64,000 bases of DNA from Deferribacterales bacterium (GTDB lineage Bacteria > Chrysiogenota > Deferribacteres > Deferribacterales > Geovibrionaceae). Positions 9,758 through 36,663 of this stretch are shown here, in pieces (the first letter of the stretch is position 1; every line of letters begins with the position of its first letter). The notes under the pieces were generated by a model that was not told the DNA's origin, did not search any database, and saw only the letters and a program-made list of their open reading frames with translations. The stretch is from positions 128,001-192,000 of the forward strand of contig JBFWLW010000004.1 in NCBI GenBank assembly GCA_050251945.1, read 5' to 3'. The translations under genes and the position numbers were made by a program.

Positions 9758-10525
9758 CTACAGGTGCATGTATTTTTCTGCCATGAGGATTGATATAAGC
9801 TGCTGACGCTTGGAAACGCCTGTTTTAGCGTAGATATTTTTCAGATGGAATTTAACGGTGTTTTCGCTGATGTTAAGAATTTTTGCAATTTCCCAGTTGG
9901 TTTTTCCATTCAGAATCCAGTGGCATGCCTCATGCTCCTTGTCTGAAAGGCAGTTTAAAAGGAGCACCACGTTAAGCCGCTTTCTTGCTGCCATAATGTG
10001 GGTGACAATTGCAGAAGTAATAGCGATTGTTCTGTTATCAGGCTGCTCTTTTGGGTCGGCAAATGAAATGAGAATCCCGAAGTCTTTTGAATCAGAAATT
10101 TCGTAAACTGAAAATCCATATTCCAGTCCGAATTGTTTTCTTATGCGGATAAGCTCTTTTTCGGATACGGAAAGCTTCCTTTCATAAGCATCCCAGATAA
10201 TAAATGATGCTTTTATGTTATTTTCAATCCGTTTTTCAAGCTCTATCCTGACAGGGTCGCACACGAGCAGGTTGTTTGTATTGTAAAATTCCATCCAGTC
10301 CTTCGGATTTGAAATGTTTATCATCCTGATGCTGTCTTCCGTGACATAATGGTGAGGAGTGTAGCAGCATAGCACATATCGGAACCCGATATATTCTGCG
10401 ATATCTTTTAAAAGATGTTCGAATTTTTCTTCCGATGTCATGTTAAGGCAAGTGTCGAATACAGATAGTATCATTTGAAGATCAGTTTCTTTCAGAAAGT
10501 TCAATTCCTGCCGTTCATCAGTCAT
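9758..10525 (-). CDS. LuxR-family regulator with autoinducer-binding domain
   Basis: W..FY.....DPV, W, GL..G ligand-domain residues; C-terminal GKTNWEIAKILNISENTVKFH HTH. Confidence 0.92.
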   Translation of the reverse strand: MTDERQELNFLKETDLQMILSVFDTCLNMTSEEKFEHLLKDIAEYIGFRYVLCCYTPHHYVTEDSIRMINISNPKDWMEFYNTNNLLVCDPVRIELEKRIENNIKASFIIWDAYERKLSVSEKELIRIRKQFGLEYGFSVYEISDSKDFGILISFADPKEQPDNRTIAITSAIVTHIMAARKRLNVVLLLNCLSDKEHEACHWILNGKTNWEIAKILNISENTVKFHLKNIYAKTGVSKRQQLISILMAEKYMHL

Positions 10526-10536
10526 TTGTAATCCTA

Positions 10537-11274
10537 TTACAGGTTAAGATATTTTCCGGTCATAACAGCTGCCGTTGCCTGCTGTCTGTTCAGAACCCCG
10601 AGTTTTGTGCAGACACTTTGCATGTGATATTTAACAGTATTTTCGGCAATATTTAAATCATTTGATATCTCAATGTTGGATTTTCCCGCAAGAAGGTGTT
10701 CGCAAAGTAATTTTTCTTTGTCTGTGAGGGTATTGTATAGAAATACTATATCCAGACGTTTTCTTGCTGCGGTCATATGGTTTATGATTCTGAGCATAAA
10801 TTCCTCCATGCGGCTGTCAGCTGTCATGTTTCTGTCCGCAAAGGAAATGAGGAAAGTGAAATCTGAGTTCGACGAATCCTGATATACGGAAAAACCGTGA
10901 TTAAGTCCGTATGAACAGCGTTCATTTATCAGCTCAATCTCATATCGCGAGAGTTCTCTGTCAAATGAATCCCATTTTATGAATGAAGATTTTATCCCGT
11001 GTTGAAGCTTCAGTTCCATTTCAATGCGCACGGGGTCATTTGCCATATAATTGCAGGTTTGGTATTTAAGCATCCAGTCTGCCGGATTGGAAATGTTGAT
11101 AATATTAACAATTGAGCCTTTAGAATAGGAGATTTTGCAATAGCAGTAAAGAATGAACTGAAATCCCAGATAGTCGGCGGTTTCTCTGATGAGTCGGTGG
11201 TAGTCCTCTTCTGTCTGGATCCTGAAACATGAGTTGATTATGTATATAACCATAAGTAGATCATCTTTGCTCAT
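10537..11274 (-). CDS. LuxR-family regulator with autoinducer-binding domain (paralogue)
   Basis: WMLKY...Y...DPV, W, GL..G; C-terminal GKSN.EI...LNIAENTVKYH. Confidence 0.92.
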   Translation of the reverse strand: MSKDDLLMVIYIINSCFRIQTEEDYHRLIRETADYLGFQFILYCYCKISYSKGSIVNIINISNPADWMLKYQTCNYMANDPVRIEMELKLQHGIKSSFIKWDSFDRELSRYEIELINERCSYGLNHGFSVYQDSSNSDFTFLISFADRNMTADSRMEEFMLRIINHMTAARKRLDIVFLYNTLTDKEKLLCEHLLAGKSNIEISNDLNIAENTVKYHMQSVCTKLGVLNRQQATAAVMTGKYLNL

Positions 11275-11456
11275 TGCCGTCTCCGCTTAAAGCCCCGATT
11301 ATTATATTATAACACTTTCACGAATTTTTCAGATGCCGGTTCTGACTGCAATCCATTTGCTATTACCGTGTCAGTTTTTTATTTAGACGAAACTGCGAGA
11401 ACATTGTTACAGACCATAATTCAGACTACTCGTCAGGTATTTGCTTAATCAATCCA

Positions 11457-11470
11457 ACTTTCGGGTAGGT
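11457..11470 (-). promoter_or_regulatory. lux-box-like site 1 (luxR pair / export operon intergenic region)
   Basis: ACCTACCCGAAAGT, 4 nt, TTGATT-18-TAGTCT on the minus strand; identical 14-mer at 36650. Confidence 0.65.
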
Positions 11471-11517
11471 ATGGTTCTTTTTCTTGATAGTGATGTTGGC
11501 GCTGTTATAACATTGAA

Positions 11518-13026
11518 GTGAAATGTAAGAACAAGAGGGGTTTCATGCCTTGGTTATTACTTTATTCACTTCTGTTAAGTATTATTACAGTTTCAAATGT
11601 CAACGCAGAAAGTATTAAGCTTGAACAGGTTTTGTCTGTTGCGATGCAGAAGCAGGCAGACGTTCTCATACAGAAGCTGAACATAGATTACGCAAAAGGG
11701 AAGCGTTTGAGTTCTTCTTCAGCATTCGATGCCGTTTTGTCTGCATCGGCAGGTTACAAGGATGCTCAGTCCCCGCTGACAATTCAGCAGTCCGCCGCAT
11801 ATGGCATATCAACAGCGGACAGCCGTTTGCGGAGTTATATGGTTCAGCTTTCAAAGACCATGAGATCGGGGTTAAGCCTTACCGCAGAGATGAGTCTCTC
11901 AAATGAGATGGATGATACCTACGGAGCTTCGGATGACAATACCAGAACAGTGGGACTTACACTAGGAATCCCCTTTTTTGATCTTTTGGACGGTAATACC
12001 TCAAACTATGCTGAGAAATCAGCGGAAGAGGATGTGAAGTCTGCCATAGAATCGTATTACAGTCAGATAAGCCAAAGCATGTATCAAACCATGTCTGCAT
12101 GGTGGAATTTTACGGCGGCATATGAAGCTTATAAAATTTACAGGCAGAGTCAGCAGCTTAATGAGAAGTATTACGAAGACTACAAAAAGCTGGTTGAAAA
12201 GGATGAAAGACCCAGGTCGGATCTGATCCAGCTTCAGGCGAATATTGCTGTGATCAGCATGGAGACCAAGGCTGCGGAAAAGAGTTATGTATCTGCCGGC
12301 TATTCTCTTTGTTCGTCACTGGGTATTCCTTATGACAGAGAGAAGTTTCTCGATCCTGACACGAGTTGGATATCTTTTAATACGATTATTGAAAAGATAA
12401 ACGGGTATCTTGAAAACCCGTATGAAAGGCGGTTTGATATCCTTGCTGCTAAATCGGATGTCGAAAGTTCTTCCATTCTTATACGGGCGTATAAAAGAAA
12501 CCTGCGACCTGACGTGAATATAAATCTGTCTGCCGAAACCTCATCGAAAACCAAGAATGACCCGTTATATGATACGGACGGACGCAACAGAGGAAACACT
12601 CTTTCTGCGGAGGTCACATATTCCTTTCCCCTGTCGAATTCCTCAGCAAAAGGACTGCTTATGCAGCAGATGTCTCTGAGGCAGCAGAACCTTATTCAGT
12701 ATGAAGAGCTGAAGCGGGCAGCTGACATAGATATTGCGGACGCTGTTCAGGAGTTTCGTCTGGCTGTCGATTCGGTGGCGTTGGCGGAGCAGTCGGTTGC
12801 ATTTTATGAGCAGGCTTTGGTCACCGAGAAAAAGAAACAGGCTATCGGTATGAGCACGGTGCTTGATGTGCTGTCCACAGGGGACAGTCTGCGTGACGTG
12901 ATGCTTGAGAAGATAAGTTACCAGCTCAGTGCGGCTCTTGCCGCTGCAAAGCTCGCCTATGTCTCTGGAGCCATTCTTGAGGTGAGAGGCGGAGAGCTTA
13001 TTATTAACCGTGATTTCTTACCTTGA
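11518..13026 (+). CDS. TolC-family outer membrane efflux protein
   Basis: Signal peptide, OEP-like helical repeats (RRFDILAA...P; G.STVLDVL); first gene of the export operon. Confidence 0.85.
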   Translation: MKCKNKRGFMPWLLLYSLLLSIITVSNVNAESIKLEQVLSVAMQKQADVLIQKLNIDYAKGKRLSSSSAFDAVLSASAGYKDAQSPLTIQQSAAYGISTADSRLRSYMVQLSKTMRSGLSLTAEMSLSNEMDDTYGASDDNTRTVGLTLGIPFFDLLDGNTSNYAEKSAEEDVKSAIESYYSQISQSMYQTMSAWWNFTAAYEAYKIYRQSQQLNEKYYEDYKKLVEKDERPRSDLIQLQANIAVISMETKAAEKSYVSAGYSLCSSLGIPYDREKFLDPDTSWISFNTIIEKINGYLENPYERRFDILAAKSDVESSSILIRAYKRNLRPDVNINLSAETSSKTKNDPLYDTDGRNRGNTLSAEVTYSFPLSNSSAKGLLMQQMSLRQQNLIQYEELKRAADIDIADAVQEFRLAVDSVALAEQSVAFYEQALVTEKKKQAIGMSTVLDVLSTGDSLRDVMLEKISYQLSAALAAAKLAYVSGAILEVRGGELIINRDFLP

Positions 13027-13035
13027 GGAGGGTGT

Positions 13036-14295
13036 ATGTCTGAGATATTCAGAAGAAAGTCGCTGGAGAAACTTGCCTCTCCCGACAAACTGGATGAGCT
13101 TATGCTGGTCACCGATGCCAAAGGGTGGCTTGCTCTTCTGGCTTTGGGGCTTATTATTGCACTGGCAGTTTTCTGGGGTTTTTTCAGTACAATACCCGAA
13201 AAAGTTGACGGACTTGGTATTTTTCTACGTCCGGAAGGGCTTGCCGATGTGATTGCTCCTTCAACCGGACAGGTTAAGGATATATACGTCAGCACGGGTG
13301 ATATTATCAAAAAAGGCTATCCGGTTGCAAGGATAAACCAGATGGAACTTCTTGCTGAAATAAAAGACCTGCGGAGCGTAATAAACGACCTTAAATTTAA
13401 CCTCGAAAATCTTAAAAAAGCAGAAACTCAATCTGTTTCCATGAAACAGTCAATGAGCACACAGCGAAAAGTAGCTATCCATGAGAAGGTTCTGAATCTC
13501 CGAAAACAGGAAGCATGGCTGAAACAGAAGATAGAAAACCAGAAAAAACTTTACGATGACGGGCTTATCACGTGGCAGACCCTGATTGATTCACAGTCTA
13601 ATCTTGATTCTGTCAGACAGCAGATCAGTGACGCGGAGAGTTCACGCAGTCAGGATGAAATGGAGCTTCATGAGAGATTCGGTCAGAAGGACAAGCAGGT
13701 TGAAGACCTGAACACGCAGATTGCCCAGAAGGAGCGGGAGCTTGAGAAACAGCTGCTTGCTCTGGACAATTCTTCAAAAATAATAAGTCCTTACAACGGG
13801 CGGATTGTGGAGCTTAACGTTGACAGGGATTCTATGGTGAGTAAAGGCTCCCCTATAGCCCGGATAGAGATAAGCGACGACAGCATCAAGAACCTCGAGG
13901 CGGTGATGTATTTTCCGCCTATGCAGGGTAAAAAGGTTAAACCCGGAATGCGGGTCAATATTTCTCCGTCAACTGTCAAGCAGGAGGAATATGGCTTCAT
14001 CGTCGGTATCGTCACTTTTGTGTCCGAGTTTCCGGTGTCGTCTTCCGCCATGGAAAGTACATTACATAACGATTCTCTGGCTCAGAATTTCACCCAGAGC
14101 GGCGCCCCTGTCGAAATAAGAGCCGATCTCATACCCGATCCTTCAACACCAAGCGGATTTAAATGGTCTTCACGCAAAGGACCGGACATAACCATTGAAA
14201 CAGGGACTCTCTGCACTGCGAGCGTCGCTGTTTCGGAGCAAAAGCCTATAAATCTGGTTGTCCCGCTGTTTAAAAAATATGTTTTGGGCAGATAG
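13036..14295 (+). CDS. NHLP bacteriocin system secretion protein (HlyD-like)
   Basis: IFR.KSLEKLASPDKLDEL N-terminus, one TM, coiled coil, EEYGFI.G.V..VS.FP, WSS.KGP. Confidence 0.92.
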   Translation: MSEIFRRKSLEKLASPDKLDELMLVTDAKGWLALLALGLIIALAVFWGFFSTIPEKVDGLGIFLRPEGLADVIAPSTGQVKDIYVSTGDIIKKGYPVARINQMELLAEIKDLRSVINDLKFNLENLKKAETQSVSMKQSMSTQRKVAIHEKVLNLRKQEAWLKQKIENQKKLYDDGLITWQTLIDSQSNLDSVRQQISDAESSRSQDEMELHERFGQKDKQVEDLNTQIAQKERELEKQLLALDNSSKIISPYNGRIVELNVDRDSMVSKGSPIARIEISDDSIKNLEAVMYFPPMQGKKVKPGMRVNISPSTVKQEEYGFIVGIVTFVSEFPVSSSAMESTLHNDSLAQNFTQSGAPVEIRADLIPDPSTPSGFKWSSRKGPDITIETGTLCTASVAVSEQKPINLVVPLFKKYVLGR

Positions 14296-14298
14296 ATC

Positions 14299-16470
14299 AT
14301 GAAAATTCCGTTTATATCGTCCGGAACAAAAAATTATACCAAAACTCCGACGACCCTTCAGATGGAGGCGGTGGAGTGCGGGGCTGCGTGTCTCGCCATG
14401 ATCCTTGATTATCACGGATTAAAAGTTCCGCTTGAGATTGTAAGGCAGGACTGCGGCGTCTCGAGAAACGGAAGCAAAGCCAGCAATATGGTTAAAGCTG
14501 CACGAAAATACGGTCTTGATGCAAGGGGATACAGAAAAGAAGTCGGCGAGCTTCAGACCATGAAGATGCCTGTCATAATCTTCTGGAATTTCAATCACTT
14601 TGTGGTGCTTGAAGGATTCAGGAACGGCAAAGCGGTTCTTAATGACCCCGGTGTGGGCAGACGTTTTATCGAAATGGACGATTTTGACGATTCATACACA
14701 GGCGTAACTCTGACCTTTAAGCCGACGAAGAGTTTTGTCAGAGGCGGCGAATCCGGATCAATGTATAAAGCTCTTCTTGAGAGATTCCGCGGTTCGGAGA
14801 TTGCCGCGGCATACGTCATTCTGGCGGGGCTGTTTCTTGTTATACCGGGGCTTGTGATCCCCGCGTTTTCAAAGATTTTTGTGGACAGTATCCTTGTCGG
14901 CGGAATGGATGACTGGCTGCGCCCATTGCTGTTCGGCATGGCTGCAACTTTTCTCGTGAGGGGCGGGCTGACATGGCTCCAGCAATATTACCTTCTGCGG
15001 TTTGAAACCAAACTGGCAACTGTTTCCACCGCAAAATTCCTTATCCACGTCCTCAGACTTCCCATTACATTTTTTGCCCAGAGGATGCCCGGCGAGATCG
15101 TCAGCCGCATCCAGCTCAACGATGTGGTGGCGAACCTCATAGCAAACCAACTGACTGTGAACGTTATCAATCTGATGATGGTGGTGTTCTACACCGCTGT
15201 GATGTTCTATTACGATGTAATGCTGACGATTACCGGCATTCTGATAGCTCTCATAAACATTGGGATGCTTAAGCTGGTGTCATCTAAACGAATAATATTA
15301 AACCAGAAATTCCAGATGGAGGGTGGAAAGCTTATCGGAATCTCCATGTCCGGACTTTCCATGATAGAGCCGCTCAAGGCGAGCGGCGGTGAATCTGATT
15401 TCTTTGCGAAATGGGCAGGTCAGCAGGCAAAGGTAATAAACACACAACAGCAGCTGGCGGTTCCGACACAGCTTCTTATGGTGATGACTCCTTTTCTGAT
15501 GAGCGTCAACACGGTTGTAGTTCTGGGGTTTGGCGGGTTAAAGGTCATGAACGGCGAAATGACACTTGGTATGCTGGTGGCATTTCAAAGCCTTATGGCA
15601 AGTTTTATGACTCCGTTTAATCAGATAGTGAACATGGGTTCGACACTCCAGCAGACTGTTTCTGATGTGAACAGGCTGGATGATGCCATGCGCTATAAAG
15701 AGGATATCAGGTTTTCTGAATCACATGTTGTTTCCATGTCCGATAAGCTTGAAGGCGGTCTTGAGCTGAAAGACATCAGTTTTGGCTACAGCAGCCTGGA
15801 AGAGCCTCTCATAAGAGAATTCAGTGTTAAGCTGAACAAGGGGCAGCGTGTTGCCATTGTCGGCGGCTCCGGTTCGGGCAAATCCACTGTGGCGAAACTG
15901 GTCAGCGGGCTATATGAGCCATGGGGCGGTGAGATACTTTATGACGGATATAAAATCAGAGAGATAGAGGATTCCGCTCTTTACGACTCCATCGCAATGG
16001 TGGATCAGGATATTTTCATGTTTGAAGGTACTGTGCGGGACAACATAACCATGTGGGACAGCACGATTTCCGATGCTGACGTTCTTAAAGCCGCAAAGGA
16101 TGCCTGTATCCATGAAGATGTTGCGATACGCCCCGGTGCGTACCGCAGCAGAGTGGAAGAGGGCGGCGGCAATTTCAGCGGAGGGCAGAGACAGAGGCTT
16201 GAGATAGCGCGGGCACTGGTGCGCAATCCTTCCATACTTATTCTGGATGAAGCCACAAGCGCACTGGATGCGCAGACTGAAATGGATGTGGTGGATAATA
16301 TCAGAAAGCGGGGCGTGACCTGTCTGATCGTGGCGCACCGTTTAAGCACAATAAGGGACAGTGACGAGATCATTGTTATGGATAACGGGCTTATAGTCCA
16401 GAGGGGAACCCACGAAAGTATGATTTCCGGGGAGGATAAGCCGTATGCGCAACTCATCAGATCATACTGA
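14299..16470 (+). CDS. NHLP-type peptidase-containing ABC transporter (C39 peptidase/permease/ATPase)
   Basis: QMEAVECGAACL (catalytic Cys), WNFNHFVV (His), NDP; Walker A GGSGSGKS, FSGGQRQ, LDEATS. Confidence 0.96.
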   Translation: MKIPFISSGTKNYTKTPTTLQMEAVECGAACLAMILDYHGLKVPLEIVRQDCGVSRNGSKASNMVKAARKYGLDARGYRKEVGELQTMKMPVIIFWNFNHFVVLEGFRNGKAVLNDPGVGRRFIEMDDFDDSYTGVTLTFKPTKSFVRGGESGSMYKALLERFRGSEIAAAYVILAGLFLVIPGLVIPAFSKIFVDSILVGGMDDWLRPLLFGMAATFLVRGGLTWLQQYYLLRFETKLATVSTAKFLIHVLRLPITFFAQRMPGEIVSRIQLNDVVANLIANQLTVNVINLMMVVFYTAVMFYYDVMLTITGILIALINIGMLKLVSSKRIILNQKFQMEGGKLIGISMSGLSMIEPLKASGGESDFFAKWAGQQAKVINTQQQLAVPTQLLMVMTPFLMSVNTVVVLGFGGLKVMNGEMTLGMLVAFQSLMASFMTPFNQIVNMGSTLQQTVSDVNRLDDAMRYKEDIRFSESHVVSMSDKLEGGLELKDISFGYSSLEEPLIREFSVKLNKGQRVAIVGGSGSGKSTVAKLVSGLYEPWGGEILYDGYKIREIEDSALYDSIAMVDQDIFMFEGTVRDNITMWDSTISDADVLKAAKDACIHEDVAIRPGAYRSRVEEGGGNFSGGQRQRLEIARALVRNPSILILDEATSALDAQTEMDVVDNIRKRGVTCLIVAHRLSTIRDSDEIIVMDNGLIVQRGTHESMISGEDKPYAQLIRSY

Positions 16471-26911: not shown

Positions 26912-26992
26912 TAGTTTTCTGCATACGCTTAATATAGTGGCAAAAAGTAAAAGCTTTGAAGGATGCAATTGTGAAAAACAGGAGGACATACC

Positions 26993-27280: not shown

Positions 27281-27282
27281 TT

Positions 27283-27579
27283 ATGTCAGTTGAAAAAGTT
27301 AAAGAATTTTTCAAACGTATGGAAGATGACGAGGCGTTCAGGGATGATTTCCTGAAAGACGAAACACTCGAAAAAGGCAACACTGAATCAGTTTGCAAGG
27401 CTGCCGCTGCAAGAGGCTACGAGTTCACAGCTGATGATCTTAAGGCTGCAAAAGAAGAGATGAAAGATACGGAACTTACTTATGAACAGCTTGATAAGGT
27501 AAGCGGCGGTTTTAAGATCGGTTGGTGTTGGGTAACCGGTACTGCTCCTTGGTGTCTCTTAGTGGGATTCGGAGAATAA
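27283..27579 (+). CDS. Nif11-leader RiPP precursor P13
   Basis: Core FKIGWCWVTGTAPWCLLVGFGE. Confidence 0.92.
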   Translation: MSVEKVKEFFKRMEDDEAFRDDFLKDETLEKGNTESVCKAAAARGYEFTADDLKAAKEEMKDTELTYEQLDKVSGGFKIGWCWVTGTAPWCLLVGFGE

Positions 27580-27581
27580 TT

Positions 27582-27911
27582 ATGTCAGTTGAAAAAGTTA
27601 AAGAATTTTTCAAACGTATGGAAGATGACGAGGCATTCAGGGATGATTTCCTGAAAGATGAAACACTTGAAAAAGACAATACGAAAGCAATTTTCAGAGC
27701 TGCCGCAGCAAGGGGGTATGAGTTTTCCGCTGAAGACCTTAAGGCGGCGCAGGACGAAATGAAAGCAACAGAACTTTCGGATGAGGAGCTTGAGAAGATC
27801 CGCGGCGGCTCATACGGCGTCGGTTTTTGTTTCAGGTATGGTGTGTTAGTGTCCAGTGAGGGTGTTGTTTTCGATACTTACGCCGTGTGTTTTACCCTCG
27901 GGTATTATTGA
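27582..27911 (+). CDS. Nif11-leader RiPP precursor P14
   Basis: ...LEKIRGG; core SYGVGFCFRYGVLVSSEGVVFDTYAVCFTLGYY. Confidence 0.92.
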   Translation: MSVEKVKEFFKRMEDDEAFRDDFLKDETLEKDNTKAIFRAAAARGYEFSAEDLKAAQDEMKATELSDEELEKIRGGSYGVGFCFRYGVLVSSEGVVFDTYAVCFTLGYY

Positions 27912-27978
27912 AATCAGAGGAGAATGTCATGTCTGCGTCGAAAAAGAGAATCCATCTAAATTAATTAAAAAATGATAA

Positions 27979-28986: not shown

Positions 28987-29050
28987 GGTAACATAACTCC
29001 AAGAAAATTTTCTTTTTCTTCAATTCGTTTGAAAACGCCTCAGCTGTTTT

Positions 29051-29413
29051 TTAATAATTAATGCCCAAAACAAAGCATACTCCGTAAGTGACTGTGGTTT
29101 CATTGGAAATCGTGGTCATGTCGGCCGCAACTCCGTCAGTGAAAAAACCGTATCCCCAAATGAAACATATTGCGGCTCCCCAGCCGCCTCCTGCTATCCT
29201 TTGCAGTTCTTCTTCAGACAGTTCAGAGTTTTTTAGCTCTTCTTTCGCCTGGTTGAGGTCTTCAGTTGTAAACGGATAACCTGCCTGTGCTGCCGCATCC
29301 AGAATTGAGTCGGGGTTGCCTTTTTCCAGTTTTTCGTTTTTCAGAAAAACGTTGCGGAAATCCTCTTCCTCTTCGATTCGTTTGAAAAACGCTTTTACGT
29401 TCTCAACTGACAT
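29051..29413 (-). CDS. Nif11-leader RiPP precursor P15
   Basis: ...LQRIAGG; core GWGAAICFIWGYGFFTDGVAADMTTISNETTVTYGVCFVLGINY. Confidence 0.92.
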   Translation of the reverse strand: MSVENVKAFFKRIEEEEDFRNVFLKNEKLEKGNPDSILDAAAQAGYPFTTEDLNQAKEELKNSELSEEELQRIAGGGWGAAICFIWGYGFFTDGVAADMTTISNETTVTYGVCFVLGINY

Positions 29414-29468
29414 AAATTTCTCCTTGTAATAATTTGATAAAGTAACCTAAGACACAAGAGTGACTATG

Positions 29469-29744
29469 TTACGAGTTAATGCCTATCGGAGAGCATTTGC
29501 CACTGATCAGTGGGATCCCGCCTGCAACTTTTTGAAGTTGGTCATCGGTAAGTTCAATGTTGTTGATTTCATTCTTGGCAAGCTCAAATTCTTCCTTTGT
29601 GAAAGGATAACCGACATCGCCGGCCGCTTTAAAAACCGAATCAGGATTCTCTTTTTCAAGTGATTTGTGCTGCACTAATTCGCTGCGGAAATCCTCATCC
29701 GTTTCCAGACGGCTAAAGAACGCTTTAACGTTTTCAATTGACAT
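29469..29744 (-). CDS. Nif11-leader RiPP precursor P16
   Basis: ...LQKVAGG; core IPLISGKCSPIGINS. Confidence 0.9.
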   Translation of the reverse strand: MSIENVKAFFSRLETDEDFRSELVQHKSLEKENPDSVFKAAGDVGYPFTKEEFELAKNEINNIELTDDQLQKVAGGIPLISGKCSPIGINS

Positions 29745-29796
29745 AGATTCTCCATAAAGCTCAGTCAGTCGACGGCTTCTGCCTTAGACTGCAATT

Positions 29797-30063
29797 TTAG
29801 TTGACTATATTGCCGCAGCCGTAAACATAACTCATTCCTCCGCTGACCTTATCAAGCTGGTCTTCGGACAGTATTCTGTTATTGATTTCGTTTTTGGCAA
29901 TTTCAACTTCCTCAGCAGTGAAAATGAATCCTGCCTGCGCTGCCAGCGTTATGACAGATCCGATATTATCTTTTACCAATCTGTCATTTTTTAAGAATTC
30001 TTCTCTGAAATCTTTGTCCTCTTCCAGACGTTTAAAGAATGCATTTGCGCTTTCAATTGACAT
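29797..30063 (-). CDS. Nif11-leader RiPP precursor P17
   Basis: ...LDKVSGG; core MSYVYGCGNIVN. Confidence 0.9.
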   Translation of the reverse strand: MSIESANAFFKRLEEDKDFREEFLKNDRLVKDNIGSVITLAAQAGFIFTAEEVEIAKNEINNRILSEDQLDKVSGGMSYVYGCGNIVN

Positions 30064-30164
30064 TGTTCTCTCCTTACAGGCTGTTCTACATATTCAGACG
30101 ACAAAACCATCCGGCAGTTACATGGATATTTATTTTATCAGGATATGATTTATAAACTCAACAA

Positions 30165-30178
30165 ACTATAGGGTAGGT
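30165..30178 (-). promoter_or_regulatory. lux-box-like site 2 (upstream of P17-P15-GH3)
   Basis: ACCTACCCTATAGT, 3 nt, TTGAGT-18-TAAAAT on the minus strand. Confidence 0.65.
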
Positions 30179-30215
30179 TTGCGCTGATCGCCCGTAACTT
30201 AAACGCCGGTAAATC

Positions 30216-32522
30216 CTATTTGTCGGAAGTCAGAAACAGAAATATACCGGAAGCGAGCAGAAAAAGAAGTCCTACCGCAAAAAGCCCCTTGTCCATAGCT
30301 GTGAAGGAGAACAGTGCGCCCAGAATCAGAGGACCCAGCATCTGACCGAGTTTGTCGGTCGTTCTCTGGAGGCTCACGGCAGATCCGGTTCCGATATATT
30401 TTGACGCTTCCTGTTCATAAGCGTAGACCATCTGCGTCGAACCGAGAATACTGCTGGAAATACCCATGAGGAACAGTGCGACCCCGACGGCAGCGACTCC
30501 CTTTATCATTATTATGATCAGGAGACTGATTCCGCCTATCGCCCCTCCGGTGAAGATCACAAGTCTGCGTTTGTGCCTGAATCTGTCGGAGAGTCTGCCG
30601 ATGTAAGGTGAAAGGTAGACAACGGTTGCTCCGTAGACCATCATAACCCTGCCTATGTTCGATTGACTGACGTTCAGGCTGTGCAGATAAACAGGTGTTG
30701 CAAACAGCAAAAGCCCCATCTGGCAAAGGGAGTAGGGAATGATTGAAAAAGTGAACACCGCAAAAATCCTTTTATCGGAAACATATTGATGCATCTGAGC
30801 TAGGGTTTCATAAATCGGAACGGAAAATGAACCGTGCGGTTTTTCGAAGTATGATTTCATAAAGATAAGCGTAAAAATAAGGGGTATGGTCATCAATGCC
30901 GCAGAACACCAGAATACCGCCGTGAAGCCTATTCTTTCGGCTAACATTGCGCCGACCGCACCGCCTGAAATATGTCCGGTAATTATTCCGGCAACGAGTG
31001 ATGCCGTGTTTGCCGATCTGTTTTCATTATCGGAATTTTTCAGCACGAAGGTGATGGCTGCCGTCCATGTAAGCCCGTATCCTGCACCCGATACGCACCT
31101 TGCGAAAATAAAGGATGATACGTCGGATGCGGCGGCAGAGAAAGCCGCCCCCATAAGGCTGACTGCGCAGCCTGCTATGAACGGTTCCTGCCAGCCCCGC
31201 CTGTCCATCCACCAGCCTGCAAGAAAAATCATGGGAAGAGTGGCGGTTATTTCCGCCGAAACGGGGAGGCTGCTTAAAAACTGCGAGAATGAGGACATAA
31301 CTCCGGATGCCGCTACGAGGCTTTTCATATGCAGCGGGATAAAGGACACTGCAAAAGTTGATGCAAAAAGATATGTCGCGGCTGCCGTGCGCATGAGTTT
31401 CGGTTCGCCTTGTTCTGACGCCGCCGCATTAACACTTTTCCTTGTGAATGCGAAGAGGAAAATGAGAAGTTCCGTCGCGAACATCAGCGATATGACAAAA
31501 ATAGTCAGCCCGTCCATCAGCAGTTTGCGGCTGATATCGCCGAGATATTTATCGGAAACGCTCACGCGTATAAACCCATCGATCTTGTTTTGTCCTCCGA
31601 AAGTGTTTTTGATTGGTTTCAGATCAGTTATATCTGCTGAAACAGATTTTACGGATTCAGTTGTATAGAGCAGCTTCATTCCCGAATCGAAAATGTCGGA
31701 TGAGCCTATTTCGGGAGTGTATGATGTAACCTTTTTCTGGGATTCGTTTATGCCCGCCAGTTTTGAAATCCGCACTCCTTTGGAAAGGAGCATCTCGATA
31801 TCTTTTCTGAACGACTGTTCGATAAACCCGGCGTTCACGGCGGCGTGCGCTCTGTTTTCATGCTCCGATTTGGATGAGATCAGGCAGATGAACACTATCT
31901 GGCTCAGAACCACGATTCCGATAACCGATGCGGCTACGGCGCCCCTTGAAAAACCTTCAGAGAGGCTGTGCCTGAAAAAGAGTTTCAGCAGAAGAAGCAG
32001 CATTAAGAGTGAAGAGGTGATGACGAGAATCAGTGTCTGCAGAGTCCATGTAACTATTCTCTTTGTGGCTTCTTTCACCGTATCATCCGCAGCCAGCAGG
32101 TTCATAACCGCAACAGTTTTACCCGATGCGTCTTTCATCGGCATGGCAAGCAGATACCCTTCTTCAAGCTTAACGCTGCCTTCGGCGGTCACTGCTTTTG
32201 TTCCTTTGCCGTGGAGCTTCCTGCCATCGGGGGAATAAACGGAAATATCCATGACCCCGGCATTATCTTTTATTGTCTGATCCAGCAGTTTTCCCAGACC
32301 CAGAAAGCTGTTGATTTCCTTGCCGAAATAGAGTGCGCCTTCAATGTCCCTCACCAGCTTAAGCTCAATGATGCGGAACTTTGAAAGATACATATCCTCG
32401 AAATTTTTCTGATATGAAAGAATTGATATGGCTGCGCAGAAGAACTGCGAGGCCATGATAACCACCAGAAGAAGCAGAATTATGAAAGACTTCAGTTTAA
32501 CGTTGTCACTTAATGCTGTCAT
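30216..32522 (-). CDS. MFS transporter fused to N-terminal extracytoplasmic domains
   Basis: Last ~400 aa are MFS-like (GWWMDRRGW, GRLSDRFR); the first ~360 aa have TM-loop-TM twice with related K.DIE..L..G segments. Confidence 0.8.
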   Translation of the reverse strand: MTALSDNVKLKSFIILLLLVVIMASQFFCAAISILSYQKNFEDMYLSKFRIIELKLVRDIEGALYFGKEINSFLGLGKLLDQTIKDNAGVMDISVYSPDGRKLHGKGTKAVTAEGSVKLEEGYLLAMPMKDASGKTVAVMNLLAADDTVKEATKRIVTWTLQTLILVITSSLLMLLLLLKLFFRHSLSEGFSRGAVAASVIGIVVLSQIVFICLISSKSEHENRAHAAVNAGFIEQSFRKDIEMLLSKGVRISKLAGINESQKKVTSYTPEIGSSDIFDSGMKLLYTTESVKSVSADITDLKPIKNTFGGQNKIDGFIRVSVSDKYLGDISRKLLMDGLTIFVISLMFATELLIFLFAFTRKSVNAAASEQGEPKLMRTAAATYLFASTFAVSFIPLHMKSLVAASGVMSSFSQFLSSLPVSAEITATLPMIFLAGWWMDRRGWQEPFIAGCAVSLMGAAFSAAASDVSSFIFARCVSGAGYGLTWTAAITFVLKNSDNENRSANTASLVAGIITGHISGGAVGAMLAERIGFTAVFWCSAALMTIPLIFTLIFMKSYFEKPHGSFSVPIYETLAQMHQYVSDKRIFAVFTFSIIPYSLCQMGLLLFATPVYLHSLNVSQSNIGRVMMVYGATVVYLSPYIGRLSDRFRHKRRLVIFTGGAIGGISLLIIIMIKGVAAVGVALFLMGISSSILGSTQMVYAYEQEASKYIGTGSAVSLQRTTDKLGQMLGPLILGALFSFTAMDKGLFAVGLLFLLASGIFLFLTSDK

Positions 32523-33630
32523 AAAGCCTGTCCGCTGCTTTTAATATTTCAAACGGGGGATTCCATCTGATTTTTTCTGCCGTGGCAATATTTAAGGCTA
32601 TGAGAGCCGGAGCATTCCAGATCATGGGGATACTCCCGGGTTTTTTTCCGTGAAAAATCTGTGCGATAACATCTGCGTGAAAGGCTCCGGCATGACTGAA
32701 CCCTGCCTGCGAAACGCTCATGAGAATGCCCGCCGCTACCTCGTTTTCGCCGCGCTGAGAGAAGGACGGTTTTTTTGCTTTTATAAGTATATCAACGAGT
32801 TTGGAAATATTGTCGTCAGTAATGCCTCTGTGCACTGTGACATAAACTGCATCCGCCTGCCTGACCAGTTTTGAGTAGCAGCTGAGAGCGTTCTGTTCTG
32901 CCTGCTCCTGTGAAATCCCTGAAAACGGAGCCTGGCATATGATCATCCGGAATTTAAGTTTTTTTGACAGAGCGGCTATGTCGTTGTATGCGCTGTATGT
33001 CCGCCCCTCTTCGGAATCCTCCATGATAAATCCGAGTTTTCTGAACCCTGTCAGAGAGTGGAACAGTTCCACCTGTTTTCTGTATCTGTCGGGTTCAACT
33101 TTTGCATGGAGGTGTGCGAAACCAGAATCTGTCGCACTTTTGATGATTTTCGATCCGATTGGATCGGATGTTGAAGCGACAATCGTCGGGACATTCATAT
33201 TCTTGTCCGCCATGTCCTGCCCTGCCCAAGTCCCCATTGCGATTATCAGATTTAAATCTTTTTTGGTTTTGATGCGCTGTCCGAGTGATTTCTTTGCAGC
33301 TATGCGTTTTTCAGGATCGAAACAGGAACTGTAGTAAGCATCGGGGACGAACTGAACGTATTCGCTTTTAATATTCGTGCAGATCCATTTCCAGAATTCT
33401 GCATGGGTTTTAAAGTTTTTATCGGAAAAAGTTTTTTTTTGTACCCAGCCTTTGTTCATCATGCCTCTTATAATCTGTGAGAGGATAAGGCTGTAGTCCG
33501 GATAGTCACCGCTTTCAAAATAACCGATGCGCCATTTTTCTCCGTCCGGTCTTCTGACAGGTGAAGAATCAGCATAGACGCTGAATGACGAGAGAAACAG
33601 CAATAATATGACAATGTATTTAGTGATCAT
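32506..33630 (-). CDS. periplasmic solute-binding protein (ABC_sub_bind-like)
   Basis: Signal peptide; IIAMGT.A, SDPI.S.II, A.IF.GKKPG.IP, LNI.TA..I. Confidence 0.8.
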   Translation of the reverse strand: MITKYIVILLLFLSSFSVYADSSPVRRPDGEKWRIGYFESGDYPDYSLILSQIIRGMMNKGWVQKKTFSDKNFKTHAEFWKWICTNIKSEYVQFVPDAYYSSCFDPEKRIAAKKSLGQRIKTKKDLNLIIAMGTWAGQDMADKNMNVPTIVASTSDPIGSKIIKSATDSGFAHLHAKVEPDRYRKQVELFHSLTGFRKLGFIMEDSEEGRTYSAYNDIAALSKKLKFRMIICQAPFSGISQEQAEQNALSCYSKLVRQADAVYVTVHRGITDDNISKLVDILIKAKKPSFSQRGENEVAAGILMSVSQAGFSHAGAFHADVIAQIFHGKKPGSIPMIWNAPALIALNIATAEKIRWNPPFEILKAADRLYDSIK

Positions 33631-34808
33631 TTGGCAATTTCAAAACTGCCGTTATGCATAACTTTAACCATAATAGGTCTGCCTGTGGGATCCCCTTTTT
33701 TATCAAAGCTGTATTGTCCGGTGAGACCTTTGTAATTTTTCAGATTATGCAGGGCATCCGCAACTTTTGAAGGCACTGTTGTGTTTGCCTGACGTATTCC
33801 TTCCGCCAGCACGTTTACGGCATCAAACCCCTGAGCCGCCCCGATGTCAGGTTTTTTACCGTACTTTTTAATGAATTCTGCGGAAAAACTTTTTACAGCC
33901 GGATAGTCGGCATCCGGATGGAAAACTGATGCCGCATAAACTCCTTCCGCATATTTTCCGGCAATCTGTGTGAGCATGGGGTGGTCGAGTGCGTCACCGC
34001 CGAGTATGGGAACATCAATGCCAAGCTTTCTTATTTCGGATATTATCTCTGCCGCTTTAGGCATTATCCCTATGAGAACGATGGCTCTGAATCTGTAGTT
34101 GTTCTTCCAGTATAAAATATCCTGTCTTATCTGTTCCGTGTTGATGGTTGAGTCGTATGACTGGCGGTCGAGAATCTTAAGTCCAAGCTCTTCGGCTTTA
34201 ATCTCAAAGGCATTGCTCTGCCCCTGACCGAAATCATCCCTTATCTGATAGATAAGAATGTCGTCTATGCCGTGTTTTTTGCAGTATTCGGCTATTCCTC
34301 TGCCGAAGCCTGCATCATTGGGGATATTGCGAAAGACCAGACCGTATCCCTGCGACGTAAGTTTCGGGTTTGTGGACAGAGGGGAGAGCATGAGCAGCCC
34401 GTTATACTGATACATTATTGAGGCTGGAATTGATATGAACGAGTTTGAGTGCCCTATAACTGCCACCATATCGGTATTTTCTGAGAATTCCTGTGCAATG
34501 AGCTGTCCCTGCTCAGCAGTCCTTTTATCGTCACCCCAGACAACTTTGATTTTTCTCCCGTTCAGCAGACCGCCGGAGGCGTTTATTCTGTCCGTTGAGA
34601 GGCTGATTCCCTGCATGAGAAGGTTTCTCTTTTCGCTCCATGGACCTGCTGCTCCTATGATTATGTCGCCTTTTGCTTTTTCGGCTTTAGCGGCACGCTG
34701 CTTTGCAGGAGTGTCCCCGCTTCCGCACGAGAAGCTCAGGAGAGAAACTGTAATACAGACTGCAATCAGTACGGCATATCTGATTGCCCTTTTGAGCACT
34801 AAAGGCAT
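33627..34808 (-). CDS. branched-chain amino acid-type solute-binding lipoprotein (LivJ/K-like)
   Basis: Lipobox-like FSC; INA.GG.L.GRKI....DD, VIGH..S, ST.P.L, YKGLTG...FD..GD. Confidence 0.9.
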   Translation of the reverse strand: MPLVLKRAIRYAVLIAVCITVSLLSFSCGSGDTPAKQRAAKAEKAKGDIIIGAAGPWSEKRNLLMQGISLSTDRINASGGLLNGRKIKVVWGDDKRTAEQGQLIAQEFSENTDMVAVIGHSNSFISIPASIMYQYNGLLMLSPLSTNPKLTSQGYGLVFRNIPNDAGFGRGIAEYCKKHGIDDILIYQIRDDFGQGQSNAFEIKAEELGLKILDRQSYDSTINTEQIRQDILYWKNNYRFRAIVLIGIMPKAAEIISEIRKLGIDVPILGGDALDHPMLTQIAGKYAEGVYAASVFHPDADYPAVKSFSAEFIKKYGKKPDIGAAQGFDAVNVLAEGIRQANTTVPSKVADALHNLKNYKGLTGQYSFDKKGDPTGRPIMVKVMHNGSFEIAK

Positions 34809-34832
34809 AAAAACTCCTTGAAAACTGCCACG

Positions 34833-36314
34833 TCAGCGGTTCACCGGATGAACAGGTATTATGTCTCTGCATATCCGGCTCATCAGTATGTTCTGAATTC
34901 TTTCGTGCACTGTTCCGCCGGATCCGGAAAATATTTTTAATGCTTTCTGGGCTGAATTCATTCCTGAGTCAATTACAGATTCAGGGTATGCAAGCATCTG
35001 TTTTTCTTCGCTGTTCAGCCCTTCGGAGGCAATATCAAGAGCTTTTTCACACAGGTTGCGGATACTTATACCGCCGAAAGCGGCGTTCATCCCGTCAATG
35101 ACGGCTCCTTTTCTGAGCCCTGCTATATTTTTCCATCCTGTCGAGCGGATAAGCTCAAAAGCCTCTTCATGATTTTGCAGAAGTCCCTTTTGTAAAGCGC
35201 TTGATGATATTATAACCGAGTCCGCCACTCTTTGCGTCATATCTTTTGAGGGAAGATTCGTGCATGGAACACGACCTTCGATGTAGCTGTAATCACAGTT
35301 TGATATAAAGAAAGATGCAAACTCTGCGGCTCCGGCATCAATGGCTTTTATGAAACGGTCAGCGGGGATATCCTGTTTGAACCCGTATCTGATTCTCGCA
35401 TCGGAAAACTGAGCGAACTGATGATATTCGGCATGAAATGCCTGCGGAGTTATCTCGATTTCTTCGCCGGTGTAAAGCTCGTTTGCTTTCCATCGCTTCT
35501 GTCTTAAAAAATCAAAAACGCACGGATTTTCAGGAATCACATAAAGAGAGTTGTTCTCTTTGAAATGAGACGGCATCTTCTGAACTGCGTGCATCACTGT
35601 GCCGTCTCCCATCATCCACCGGAAGTATTCCAGAAGGCTGTCAAAAGGTTTCTGCGGAAACCGGCAGGTTTTCAGGTCACTTTCAAAATACGTTTGACTG
35701 AACATTCTGTTCCACATGTTCAGTCTGTCGGCACAATAACCTGTCGGAAGCCCGTTTCCGAATGCGCTGTTACCGTAGACTGCAATAAAAACAGGGCTGA
35801 AAGCCATTACGATATTCAGTGCGTCCAGTGAATCTTCCGGTTTTATGCCTGTGCACGGGCTTGTCTGTGCTTTTGCGTTTATACCTGTACAGTGCTTCCA
35901 GTTTCTGAATTTGTTCCAGTAGTCGTATATGGGTCTTCTAAGCCTGAACCTTTGGTAAGCTTCTTCCGAACACTCCTGCAAAGGGTGTTCCGCTATGTTG
36001 AGAACAGCCATGCCTTTATCGTCGAGAACGCTTAGAACATTGTTCAGCGCAGAGTTTATTTCTTTGTTCAGGTCCCGCAGTCCGCAGCCGGAATCGCTGA
36101 ACGGTCCGACGGACAGCTCGGCGTTGTTGTATCCGTTGTCGTATCCTATTACGGCAAGACCCTGTTTGCAGCTGAATACGGATTTTCGTACTGTTTCGTT
36201 CTGAAACGAACCGCTGCATATATCGTCGACCATTGAAAATGCTGCCGCACTCTTTCCGTCGGTTTTATAAACCACCGGAAGTTCGACTTCCGCTCCGCAG
36301 GATAGTATTTTCAT
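34833..36314 (-). CDS. glutamate-cysteine ligase (GCS2/GshA)-like carboxylate-amine ligase
   Basis: GAEVE, NNAELS.GP, AQTS, A.YGNS.F..G..TG...R...W, DARIR, YIEGR follow the order of GCS-family motifs. Confidence 0.7.
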   Translation of the reverse strand: MKILSCGAEVELPVVYKTDGKSAAAFSMVDDICSGSFQNETVRKSVFSCKQGLAVIGYDNGYNNAELSVGPFSDSGCGLRDLNKEINSALNNVLSVLDDKGMAVLNIAEHPLQECSEEAYQRFRLRRPIYDYWNKFRNWKHCTGINAKAQTSPCTGIKPEDSLDALNIVMAFSPVFIAVYGNSAFGNGLPTGYCADRLNMWNRMFSQTYFESDLKTCRFPQKPFDSLLEYFRWMMGDGTVMHAVQKMPSHFKENNSLYVIPENPCVFDFLRQKRWKANELYTGEEIEITPQAFHAEYHQFAQFSDARIRYGFKQDIPADRFIKAIDAGAAEFASFFISNCDYSYIEGRVPCTNLPSKDMTQRVADSVIISSSALQKGLLQNHEEAFELIRSTGWKNIAGLRKGAVIDGMNAAFGGISIRNLCEKALDIASEGLNSEEKQMLAYPESVIDSGMNSAQKALKIFSGSGGTVHERIQNILMSRICRDIIPVHPVNR

Positions 36315-36358
36315 TGATATGTTTTCCTTAGCTATTTTTAAATAAATTAATTAAGAGA

Positions 36359-36550
36359 TTATTGGCTACTCTGCTCTTTTAAAACACGTCTTATATCTTC
36401 GTCTGTGAATTCATAGCCTTTTTCAGCCACAAACAAAAACAGGCTCTCTGCTTTATTGTCTTTAAGTCTTTTGTCCTGCATAAATTCTGTTCTGAATTCT
36501 GCATCAGTTTCAAGCCTTTTGACGAAATTCAAAACGTTTTCCACGGACAT
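36359..36550 (-). CDS. core-less Nif11 leader-only peptide (63 aa)
   Basis: AAGGAG RBS; MSVENVLNFVKRLETDAEFR...A.EKGYEFTDEDIRRVLKEQSSQ*; no ELxxxxLxxVxGG motif and no core. Confidence 0.8.
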   Translation of the reverse strand: MSVENVLNFVKRLETDAEFRTEFMQDKRLKDNKAESLFLFVAEKGYEFTDEDIRRVLKEQSSQ

Positions 36551-36649
36551 GGGTGACTCCTTGCTCGGAACCGACAATACCGACGGATTATTAATAACCG
36601 GATAAAAATGCATTCTATTTTTACTCGCTATATTGATAAAATCAATTAG

Positions 36650-36663
36650 ACTTTCGGGTAGGT
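36650..36663 (-). promoter_or_regulatory. lux-box-like site 3 (upstream of the leader-only/ligase operon)
   Basis: ACCTACCCGAAAGT, 4 nt, TTGATT, then an AT-rich -10-like segment 16-17 nt further on. Confidence 0.65.

Follow-up and report, generated by a model that had tools for sequence, protein, structure and literature searches.

In prochlorosin biosynthesis, peptide libraries are made by one enzyme, ProcM, that modifies many ProcA precursors with Nif11 leaders. An export system for NHLP and Nif11 peptides (TIGR03794, TIGR03796 and TIGR03797) was reportedly described by Haft, Basu and Mitchell in 2010. For the Lah system, the last 13 leader residues are described as sufficient for cleavage by the C39 domain (PMC6363468). 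Spliceases are radical S-adenosylmethionine (rSAM)/SPASM enzymes acting at X-Tyr-Gly in Nif11 or NHLP precursors, and their founding plp cluster includes a PoyD homologue, PlpD (PMC11002830, PMC10849128, PMC11414181). Other enzymes, StsB and BlaB, form Cys-Gly α-carbon thioethers in CxCxC...GxGxG hairpins, glycine being linkable only at its α carbon (PMC10288494). PoyD-type enzymes epimerise in an alternating pattern; PoyD itself uses a conserved non-cluster cysteine, Cys372, as donor of the hydrogen atom and acts in vitro on short core fragments without a leader (PMC8326336). Here we describe an island of genes for peptides that are made on the ribosome and modified after translation (RiPPs) in a 64-kb window (the whole stretch of DNA that was analysed) of the 3.07-Mb genome of a Deferribacterales bacterium. 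All coordinates are window positions.

Our reading, to which we give a probability of about 0.6, is that the island is a horizontally acquired RiPP system making two kinds of modified peptides that are exported by one pump. Judged by its gene families, it belongs to known kinds, namely the Nif11/NHLM RiPP systems, the PoyD epimerases and the rSAM/SPASM maturases. It appears to stand out by having the largest array sampled, an uncharacterised SPASM family with a Cys-x3-Gly signature, the pairing of this family with PoyD and double leaders (so far unique), and a GG-tagged sigma partner.

A first-pass annotation of this DNA had listed 17 GG-ended Nif11 precursor genes (two double-leader, 12 with a near-identical leader and three on the minus strand) and one leader-only gene, and both the translated open reading frames (ORFs) and the model TIGR03798 agreed with it. 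Its count of 16 cores was also right, genes 22963 and 23399 encoding an identical protein. The GG was located at leader positions 75–76 in 15 genes and 147–148 in the two double-leader genes; leaders were 76 amino acids (aa) long in the 12 plus-strand single-leader genes and 148 aa in the double-leader pair. TIGR03798 gave 20 matches in the whole genome, all within 19471–36550. Seventeen were above the cut-off, three of these only when scored with in-frame neighbours. The three below it were the leader-only gene (29.9–30.3 vs a cut-off of 32.3; Pfam Nif11, 28.5 vs 23.8) and, in both double leaders, the Nif11 unit that comes first. No match above the cut-off was found in 14 control genomes. All 17 precursors, the three scored with neighbours included, combined a score over the curated cut-off with a GG leader end and an NHLM-type peptidase-containing ATP-binding cassette (ABC) transporter (PCAT) alongside. 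The start codon of every precursor was preceded by a purine-rich stretch.

The proposed design of constant leader and variable core was confirmed by mean DNA identities of 84% for leaders and 49% for cores (96% and 51% in the double-leader pair). The 12 plus-strand genes do share a leader, as had been claimed, but "near-identical" was too strong a word for it, the mean aa identity being 82% and the lowest 71%. The three minus-strand leaders were 51% identical to those of the 12 plus-strand genes. Twelve 272-nt repeats, each of 44 nt upstream sequence plus the leader, were 69–87% identical to the reference copy. Two 436-nt units carrying the third and fourth single-leader precursors (22963 and 23399) differed at only 2 positions, indicating a recent duplication. 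The array thus probably grew by tandem duplication of leader-plus-core units. With 17 precursors, compared to a maximum of 10 per locus among 157 sampled loci with relatives of the SPASM enzyme, it is the largest array among the sampled loci. A contig of depth 2.9 in a coded public run (X3) joined position 27411 to 27710, missing 298 nt, the length of a single precursor unit, which hints weakly at variation in array copy number among strains.

The cores were of several types. Class A comprised the two double-leader genes, with 39- and 36-residue cores of Ala/Val/Leu/Gly, one charged residue each and no Cys. In class B (22170, 25874, 26238, 27283, 27582 and 29051) there were two Cys; hydrophobic residues came after each of them, with Gly at the +4 position. 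Four Cys were found in class C, made up of 22533 and the identical pair 22963/23399; 26597, with two Cys, was more weakly like 22533 (core identity 37%). The remaining single-leader precursors had short cores with one Cys. In all, Cys occurred in 15 of 15 single-leader cores, one to four in each, and made up 31 of 457 residues (6.8%), as compared to 0.8% in single-leader leaders and 1.3% in 14 large island proteins. Since every single-leader core contained Cys and neither of the two double-leader cores beside the PoyD gene did, the precursor sequences suggest that the SPASM enzyme and the epimerase divide the labour between separate substrate classes.

The annotation of one rSAM/SPASM enzyme was supported by the cluster motif and the SPASM Cys pattern; its gene starts at 24178 and not, as had been given, at 24067. 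No NCBIfam model was reached by this protein (best score 96.8 bits vs a cut-off of 395). StsB was the only model of a characterised family that aligned over nearly its whole length. Database searches found 561 relatives, the best with identities of 56, 54, 50, 46 and 49%. Alignments of 10 and 67 members showed the cluster motif, the complete Cys pattern of SPASM and an N-terminal domain of ~95 residues to be conserved; C107/C111/C114, C341, C359, C406, C409, C415 and C419 were invariant in the 67 homologues, and C438 was present in at least 90%. The AlphaFold2 model had a predicted local distance difference test score (pLDDT) of 94.9 and a predicted template-modelling score (pTM) of 0.92. Its best Foldseek matches were SuiB, SkfB, TigE, CteB, anSME, ChlB and PqqE (near-full-length for SuiB, CteB and SkfB), and the best PDB matches by sequence were SkfB, a lipid synthase, SuiB and CteB. 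The leading structural matches are maturases of RiPPs that bear a RiPP recognition element (RRE), among them the thioether formers SkfB and CteB; structural alignments, rather than a domain model, point to the N-terminal domain of the window enzyme as an RRE. With this predicted RRE, the enzyme had the architecture RRE, radical SAM and SPASM with two auxiliary-cluster Cys sets, and the modelled fold says that it is a RiPP maturase with two auxiliary clusters; the reaction is not specified by the fold. Cys donors in the cores, as expected for a thioether maturase, were present in 15 of 15 single-leader cores here and in 123 of 147 cores beside its relatives.

These relatives (26–43% identity) were studied at 157 loci, 77 from species-representative genomes and 80 from metagenomes, the metagenome ones being at most 41% identical to the window enzyme. 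Nif11-type precursors were found in 87 loci (169 genes); 16 loci had at least three and the maximum was 10. A C39-ABC gene was present in 65 loci, a second ABC gene in 63, HlyD in 17 and an extracytoplasmic function (ECF) sigma factor in 11. The cassette of SPASM enzyme, Nif11 array and NHLM exporter is widespread, and the SPASM family is common in anaerobes of gut, rumen and sediment. PoyD, TolC and GCS2 were found at none of the 157 loci, many of which are short contigs, so that these absences are weak evidence. Three features are still unusual: this SPASM family paired with PoyD (0 of 157 loci), the doubled leaders and how large the array is. Among the 147 cores that could be delimited beside SPASM relatives, 97 contained two or more Cys, and Cys made up 8.3% of cores against 0.4% of leaders. 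These cores carried CxC...G-rich repeats, some of them without any Tyr, and the class B core type recurred in a Treponema metagenome-assembled genome (L025) and in metagenome loci L152, L156 and L162. At three loci (L172, 11436–11675; L168, 2479–2718; L171, 4056–4295) a Nif11-leader gene with a 9-residue, Cys-free core lay just before HlyD; these peptides could be exported signals rather than antibiotics. A search of the open-access literature, with subscription papers outside its range, found no description of this SPASM family or of the Nif11 arrays that it serves.

The 14 distinct single-leader cores hold 27 Cys, and for 15 of these the residue at +4 is Gly. The mean of shuffled cores was 3.2, and none of 5000 shuffles reached 15. 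In the external cores the count was 165 of 448 (shuffle mean 74.7, reached in 0 of 2000 shuffles). Gly was the only residue that stood out around Cys: over a background of 14–16%, its share at +4 was 56% for the window cores and 37% for the external ones. At +6 in the external cores it reached 49%, because many of them carry CxC. The enrichment at +4 points to Cys-Gly thioether (sactionine-like) rings, and by analogy the StsB/BlaB chemistry is the nearest characterised to what the cores suggest.

The assignment of a PoyD-type epimerase was upheld by a score above the TIGR04517 cut-off and a CX3CX2C motif. C175/C179/C182 of this motif and two further Cys (C349 and C368) were invariant in an alignment of 39 homologues. 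The best database relatives were metagenome proteins of 58–55% identity, along with proteins of anaerobic Firmicutes or Synergistota, and named ones came from Peptococcaceae, Defluviitaleaceae, Synergistaceae, Desulfotomaculum and Moduliflexus; PoyD-family epimerases are, as judged from sequence, common in anaerobes. The gene lies 13 nt after the second double-leader gene and lies directly before five single-leader genes. Action of the enzyme on class A is favoured by the gene adjacency and the special, doubled leader. Double leaders are not unique to the window: a HMMER scan of 1.84 billion representatives gave 154 proteins at E ≤ 0.001, and 13 of 16 proteins fetched were 179–212 residues long, nearly all of these 13 with a Gly/Ala/Val-rich core after GG and at most two Cys. 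PoyD was also present in 3 of 50 genomes on contigs other than the SPASM locus. These three, from rabbit-gut Lachnospiraceae, had PoyD with other GG precursors, an ECF sigma factor and a PCAT, and one had a different SPASM enzyme as well. In that genome (G057; L180, 7464–11198) the PoyD-family gene lay ~0.9 kb after the different rSAM/SPASM gene, so PoyD is found together with another radical SAM enzyme elsewhere in nature too. In a Synergistaceae-centred family, PoyD was found in one of 107 genomes, and a Nif11 model built here detected no precursor near it.

The annotated C39-ABC/ABC/HlyD/TolC exporter held for the trio, all three models being reached above cut-off, and only in part for "TolC", which belongs to the OEP family and scores below the TolC model. 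The predicted pump consists of the usual NHLM trio and an added outer-membrane factor, which a diderm host needs. An operon-like plus-strand run (11518–27911) carried, in order, the pump genes, the ECF sigma factor, a 99-aa ORF, the double-leader pair, PoyD, five precursors, the SPASM enzyme and seven precursors. Pfam scans of 24 island proteins and 31 further window proteins detected no LanM, LanB, YcaO or B12-dependent radical SAM enzyme, as had been stated, and no core-modifying enzyme of a known RiPP type other than radical SAM, in line with the claim of modification by radical SAM enzymes only. Lanthipeptide, YcaO/azoline and B12-methylation readings were rejected, since no matching enzyme family was present among these 55 proteins.

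The annotated ~27-kb Nif11 island was confirmed as a strain-specific block at a tRNA-Arg site. In a congener (G002, L173), blastn identity of 85–88% ran to window position 9688/9702 and again from 36762, and nothing matched in between. Both flanking genes lay on the same contig of the congener with other content of ~10 kb between them; this unlike stretch (L173, 4091–14109) held at least seven ORFs of 230–630 aa. The Nif11 and PoyD models matched none of 40 relatives, six of them of the same genus, and for the window SPASM enzyme these relatives had only housekeeping paralogues of 23–29% identity. A tRNA-Arg(ACG) gene is located at 7299–7374, with a 35–42-nt copy of its 3′ end 2.3 kb downstream, and the island begins directly after this copy. 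The absence of both models from the 40 relatives, the identity to G002 interrupted at the island and the tRNA-Arg copy at its edge indicate, on sequence grounds, that the island was acquired horizontally. No integrase was seen. Between the tRNA gene and the copy were genes of defence type, for a Schlafen/AlbA_2 ATPase and an Abi_C protein (Pfam), and the tRNA-linked site looks like one that has received more than one element. Among coded public runs, contigs with island DNA were found in X1 (all 30 bins) and X2 (25 bins) of the same study, the parts not covered being uninformative; island fragments 95–99% alike occurred in two further studies. An Rfam scan of 9000–37500 matched no family.

In the scheme that we propose, the SPASM enzyme would bind the shared 76-aa leader and, forming thioethers by radical chemistry, cross-link the Cys of all 15 single-leader cores. 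In Cys-x3-Gly cores the Gly α-carbon at +4 would be the likely acceptor, giving a small sactionine-type ring, and in cores without this motif other acceptors would have to serve. The PoyD-type enzyme would convert L- to D-residues in the two Cys-free, 36–39-residue Ala/Val/Gly/Leu cores of the double-leader precursors, yielding membrane-active peptides. Cleavage after GG would fall to the C39 domain, and export of the products from the diderm cell to both ABC subunits together with HlyD and the outer-membrane factor. Expression would be controlled by the ECF sigma factor, for which the 99-aa ORF may encode an anti-sigma, and by the two LuxR proteins.

Several observations weigh against this scheme. 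The island is known here from genes alone, with no product, activity or transcript seen. The external loci are mutually related and not independent, so that their counts describe a family habit, and 24 of their 147 cores lack Cys. The PoyD model was passed only barely (336.7 vs 325). Moreover, loci such as L172 have a SPASM enzyme and Cys-free hydrophobic GG peptides behind single leaders, with no PoyD in the examined stretch, so that the epimerase is not required for such cores to exist. The two enzymes could share the work otherwise, PoyD epimerising the single-leader or all 17 peptides, or the double-leader peptides being unmodified class-II-type bacteriocins that merely use the pump. We take this as possible, if doubtful. 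Activity of PoyD on leaderless core fragments (PMC8326336), its gene lying also before five single-leader genes, similar Cys-free hydrophobic GG peptides without PoyD at L172, L171, L143 and L144, and a weak likeness to Bacteriocin_IIc (24.0 bits vs a cut-off of 27.1) and the CTB bacteriocin model all speak for it. The double leader, however, is a distinct recognition module on just two island genes, immediately before the PoyD gene, and long Ala/Val/Gly runs are a known kind of substrate for alternating epimerisation, as in polytheonamide (PMC8326336). That the island is a silent or decaying passenger, most of whose precursors are never made, is hardly to be expected: it is missing from all 40 relatives searched and known from DNA alone, and one low-depth contig of another sample is without one unit, but the frames of all 17 precursors are intact, as are the two enzymes and every gene of the pump, a purine-rich stretch stands before each precursor start codon, and the two units differing at 2 of 436 bases mark a recent duplication.

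The reaction of the SPASM enzyme is a separate matter, and on this too there are points against thioether formation. The curated thioether-maturase models were missed by wide margins (StsB 90.8/625, AlbA 66.7/850 and PapB 61.6/340), as was the maturase model WgkB (88/650), the fold matches include the non-thioether enzymes SuiB, TigE and PqqE, Cys-x3-Gly is present in nine of the 15 single-leader precursors and absent from six, and YG is enriched in window cores, which keeps a splicease reading open. The enzyme could act on the Cys cores by forming a β/γ-carbon thioether (ranthipeptide-like), a Cys-aromatic or C-C link, or by Cys oxidation. This would fit a family that reaches no curated model, whose fold neighbours span Lys-Trp cross-linking (SuiB), cyclopropylglycine formation (TigE), thioethers (SkfB and CteB) and Cys/Ser oxidation (anSME), and whose cores are rich in Tyr, Trp and Phe, with six precursors lacking Cys-x3-Gly. 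We consider it unlikely, since only Gly stands out around Cys, in the window and outside it, and Gly can be linked at the α carbon only (PMC10288494). If it were a PlpX-type splicease, the enzyme would excise a tyramine equivalent at X-Tyr-Gly and leave an α-keto-β-amino acid, making the island a plp-like proteusin/spliceotide locus. The plp cluster does bring together a PoyD homologue and a SPASM splicease, working on Nif11/NHLP precursors (PMC11002830; PMC10849128; PMC11414181), and the 14 distinct window cores hold 10 occurrences of YG where shuffled cores average 4.3 (10 reached in 20 of 5000 shuffles). It is, however, found in six of these cores and absent from eight, all 14 having Cys, and in only 31 of 132 distinct cores beside SPASM relatives, some of which have no Tyr. 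Much of the YG excess falls within the Cys-x3-Gly motif as Cys-x-x-Tyr-Gly, and no small PlpY-like gene was seen at the island, all of which makes a splicease improbable.

A bolder version of the proposed scheme would make the island a radical-SAM counterpart of the prochlorosins. A promiscuous SPASM enzyme of a new family, guided by the shared Nif11 leader, would furnish 14 unrelated cores with minimal sactionine rings at Cys-x3-Gly and with other links, the PoyD-type epimerase would read the duplicated leader to give membrane-spanning peptides of alternating D/L residues, and an anti-sigma-like protein with the 13-residue recognition stretch of the pump plus GG, cut or held by the peptidase-transporter, would tie transcription to free pump capacity. 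We regard this full version as speculative and rather unlikely to hold in all its parts.

Table 1. Coordinates of the island, its genes and its sequence elements in the window.
Feature	Coordinates	Strand	Basis
Copy of tRNA-Arg 3′ end, left edge of island	9661–9702	+	2 matches in window, 0 expected by chance
Whole island, ~27 kb	9703–36761		blastn vs congener G002: no match between edges
LuxR-type regulator 1 (autoinducer-binding and GerE helix-turn-helix)	9758–10525	-	PF03472 52.8 bits, PF00196 66.8 bits
LuxR-type regulator 2	10537–11274	-	PF03472 43.7 bits, PF00196 56.8 bits
24-nt element, copy 1, 48 nt before exporter operon start codon	11447–11470	+	21 of 24 bases identical to copy 2
Outer-membrane efflux factor, TolC-like	11518–13026	+	Pfam OEP 102.5 bits, 2 stretches; TIGR01844 65.6 bits vs cut-off 225
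NHLP-bacteriocin-system HlyD adaptor	13036–14295	+	TIGR03794 373.4 bits, cut-off 156.2
C39 peptidase/permease/ATPase (PCAT, NHLM ABC1)	14299–16470	+	TIGR03796 1053.4, cut-off 853.3; Pfam Peptidase_C39 127.1 bits
Second ABC subunit without peptidase (NHLM ABC2)	16445–18628	+	TIGR03797 858.5 bits, cut-off 709.4
ECF sigma factor	18625–19158	+	TIGR02937 92.2 bits, cut-off 42.9; Pfam Sigma70_r2, r4_2
99-aa orphan ORF, overlaps sigma stop by 4 nt; candidate anti-sigma	19155–19454	+	no family; alignment with leader ends
Double-Nif11-leader precursor 1; 39-aa Cys-free Ala/Val/Leu core	19471–20034	+	TIGR03798 72.6 bits, 2 stretches
Double-Nif11-leader precursor 2; 36-aa Cys-free core	20081–20635	+	TIGR03798 73.2 bits, 2 stretches
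PoyD-family radical SAM peptide epimerase (predicted); start codon uncertain, database record starts 22 codons later	20649–22139	+	TIGR04517 336.7 bits, cut-off 325
Five single-leader precursors	22170–22511, 22533–22886, 22963–23322, 23399–23758, 23835–24143	+	ORF translation, TIGR03798
Radical SAM/SPASM maturase (predicted), N-terminal RRE-like domain, uncharacterised family	24178–25536	+	CX3CX2C, 7–8-Cys SPASM pattern, AlphaFold2, Foldseek
Seven single-leader precursors	25546–25824, 25874–26221, 26238–26585, 26597–26911, 26993–27280, 27283–27579, 27582–27911	+	ORF translation, TIGR03798
Glycoside hydrolase family 3 (NagZ-like), signal-peptide-like N-terminus	27979–28986	-	Pfam Glyco_hydro_3 204.6 bits
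Three diverged single-leader precursors	29051–29413, 29469–29744, 29797–30063	-	TIGR03798 55.6, 52.5, 40.9 bits
768-aa protein, N-terminal membrane/periplasmic part fused to MFS transporter	30216–32522	-	Pfam MFS_1, residues 382–715
Periplasmic solute-binding proteins: ABC_sub_bind (32506–33630), Peripla_BP_6 (33627–34808)	32506–34808	-	Pfam
GCS2-family carboxylate-amine ligase	34833–36314	-	Pfam GCS2 36.6 bits; GCS2 clusters as Atlas neighbours
Leader-only Nif11 protein, 63 aa from conserved start; ORF may reach 36613	36359–36550	-	Pfam Nif11 28.5 bits
24-nt element, copy 2, near head of minus-strand block	36640–36663	same orientation as copy 1	0.01 matches expected

An "ECF sigma pair" had been annotated as part of the regulation. 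The sigma factor was verified with TIGR02937, and its supposed partner, the 99-aa ORF, had neither a family nor a homologue: it matched no NCBIfam or Pfam family, and in a homologue search it was itself the sole match among 2 candidates. The C-terminal part of this ORF aligned with the last 13 leader residues plus GG of the precursors and was followed by a 13-residue acidic tail; we put forward the hypothesis that it is an anti-sigma on which the pump acts. No similar ORF followed the sigma genes of the 11 SPASM-relative loci with an ECF sigma factor. A structure-predicted complex of the two proteins scored 0.00 and was used neither way. In the open-access literature, subscription papers lying outside the search, no anti-sigma with a double-glycine site was found described. 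The two annotated LuxR proteins were confirmed, both having Autoind_bind and GerE domains; they are two of four Autoind_bind proteins in the genome. No LuxI-type synthase (PF00765) was detected in the genome, nor did this model match any control genome. The 24-nt element may be a regulator site. The final base of its second copy is the position at which the first-pass annotation had ended the island (36663), and a terminator-like hairpin (36716–36734) follows this copy. A scan for sigma-70 promoters gave 33 sites vs 32.4 expected, which is chance level, and one for terminator-like sites 29 vs 19.0; neither was used. No inverted repeats were found in four intergenic regions.

In the alignment, the leader-only Nif11 protein ended exactly where the recognition stretch for the PCAT would begin. 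Its role could be to assist an enzyme in trans, by analogy with the splicease Y proteins (PMC11414181), or alternatively to serve the neighbouring GCS2 ligase. A Peripla_BP_6 homologue (261 bits) lay directly after the exporter genes in two other Nif11/SPASM loci (L167, 8733–9965; L169, 15333–16565), and the binding protein of the island may belong to the system. Outside the island (50733–52150), an ORF of 184 aa matches a TonB-dependent receptor in its Plug domain only, and after it comes an ORF of 200 aa without a family; they may be a split receptor gene.

If the proposed chemistry is true, many cross-linked peptides could be made by a compact route free of oxygen, with one leader and one enzyme for 14 natural substrates, a substrate tolerance of the kind sought by peptide engineers. 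A function would be assigned to a large unnamed enzyme family (the 561 database matches), with Cys-x3-Gly as a directly testable substrate rule. The double-leader Ala/Val/Gly peptides beside a PoyD homologue would be candidate D-amino-acid membrane peptides outside sponges and cyanobacteria, and a GG-tagged ECF sigma partner would be a new coupling of export and transcription. If the chemistry fails, this would be an ordinary though very large bacteriocin-type island.

The claim that no characterised cluster has this composition was too strong, since the Pleurocapsa plp cluster, as described in PMC11002830, combines PlpD and PlpX with precursors of nitrile-hydratase-like/Nif11 leaders. Like plp/pcp, the island has several precursors with Nif11/nitrile-hydratase-like leaders, a PoyD-type epimerase and a second rSAM/SPASM enzyme (PMC11002830, PMC11414181). 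It differs from them in that its SPASM enzyme, unlike PlpX/PlpY, has its own N-terminal domain and no PlpY-like gene beside it, and its cores share Cys and not X-Tyr-Gly, PlpX being set apart here by description and not by sequence. Its array is also far bigger, and it resides in an anaerobe of Deferribacterota type. Like PoyD, OspD, AvpD and PlpD, the island epimerase reaches the family model, has CX3CX2C and further conserved Cys, and is encoded beside precursors with long leaders; unlike theirs, its putative substrates are double-Nif11-leader peptides with Ala/Val/Gly cores. Unlike the polytheonamide and cyanobacterial proteusin loci, the island has no B12 methyltransferases, hydroxylase or LanM with its epimerase.

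The Cys-Gly α-carbon thioethers formed by rSAM/SPASM enzymes in StsA/StsB (Streptomyces sparsogenes) and BlaA/BlaB, as described in PMC10288494, are the likeness predicted for the single-leader peptides. StsB uses a separate RRE protein, and the window enzyme lies far below the StsB family cut-off (90.8 vs 625). In StsA the hairpins are short and nested, the distances from Cys to Gly being +5, +9 and +13 (PMC10288494); the island cores have +4 and mostly one or two Cys, and the island leaders, unlike those of StsA/StsB, are of Nif11 type with PCAT export. The lah cluster of Lachnospiraceae bacterium C6A11 is similar in its nine Nif11-type precursors with diverse cores (LahA1–9) and one PCAT, LahT (PMC6363468). 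It is unlike the island with its 17 precursors and two radical SAM enzymes, none of the latter being named for lah in the passages of PMC6363468 that describe it. The three exporter models of the NHLP/Nif11 export system are all reached well above their cut-offs, and to this system the island adds an outer-membrane factor gene at the operon head. With the prochlorosins it shares one enzyme for many precursors, a conserved Nif11 leader, hypervariable cores and cleavage at GG by a PCAT (PMC10783134). Unlike them it has no LanM, and its predicted chemistry is that of radical SAM enzymes, oxygen-sensitive and centred on Cys, with no dehydration of Ser/Thr.

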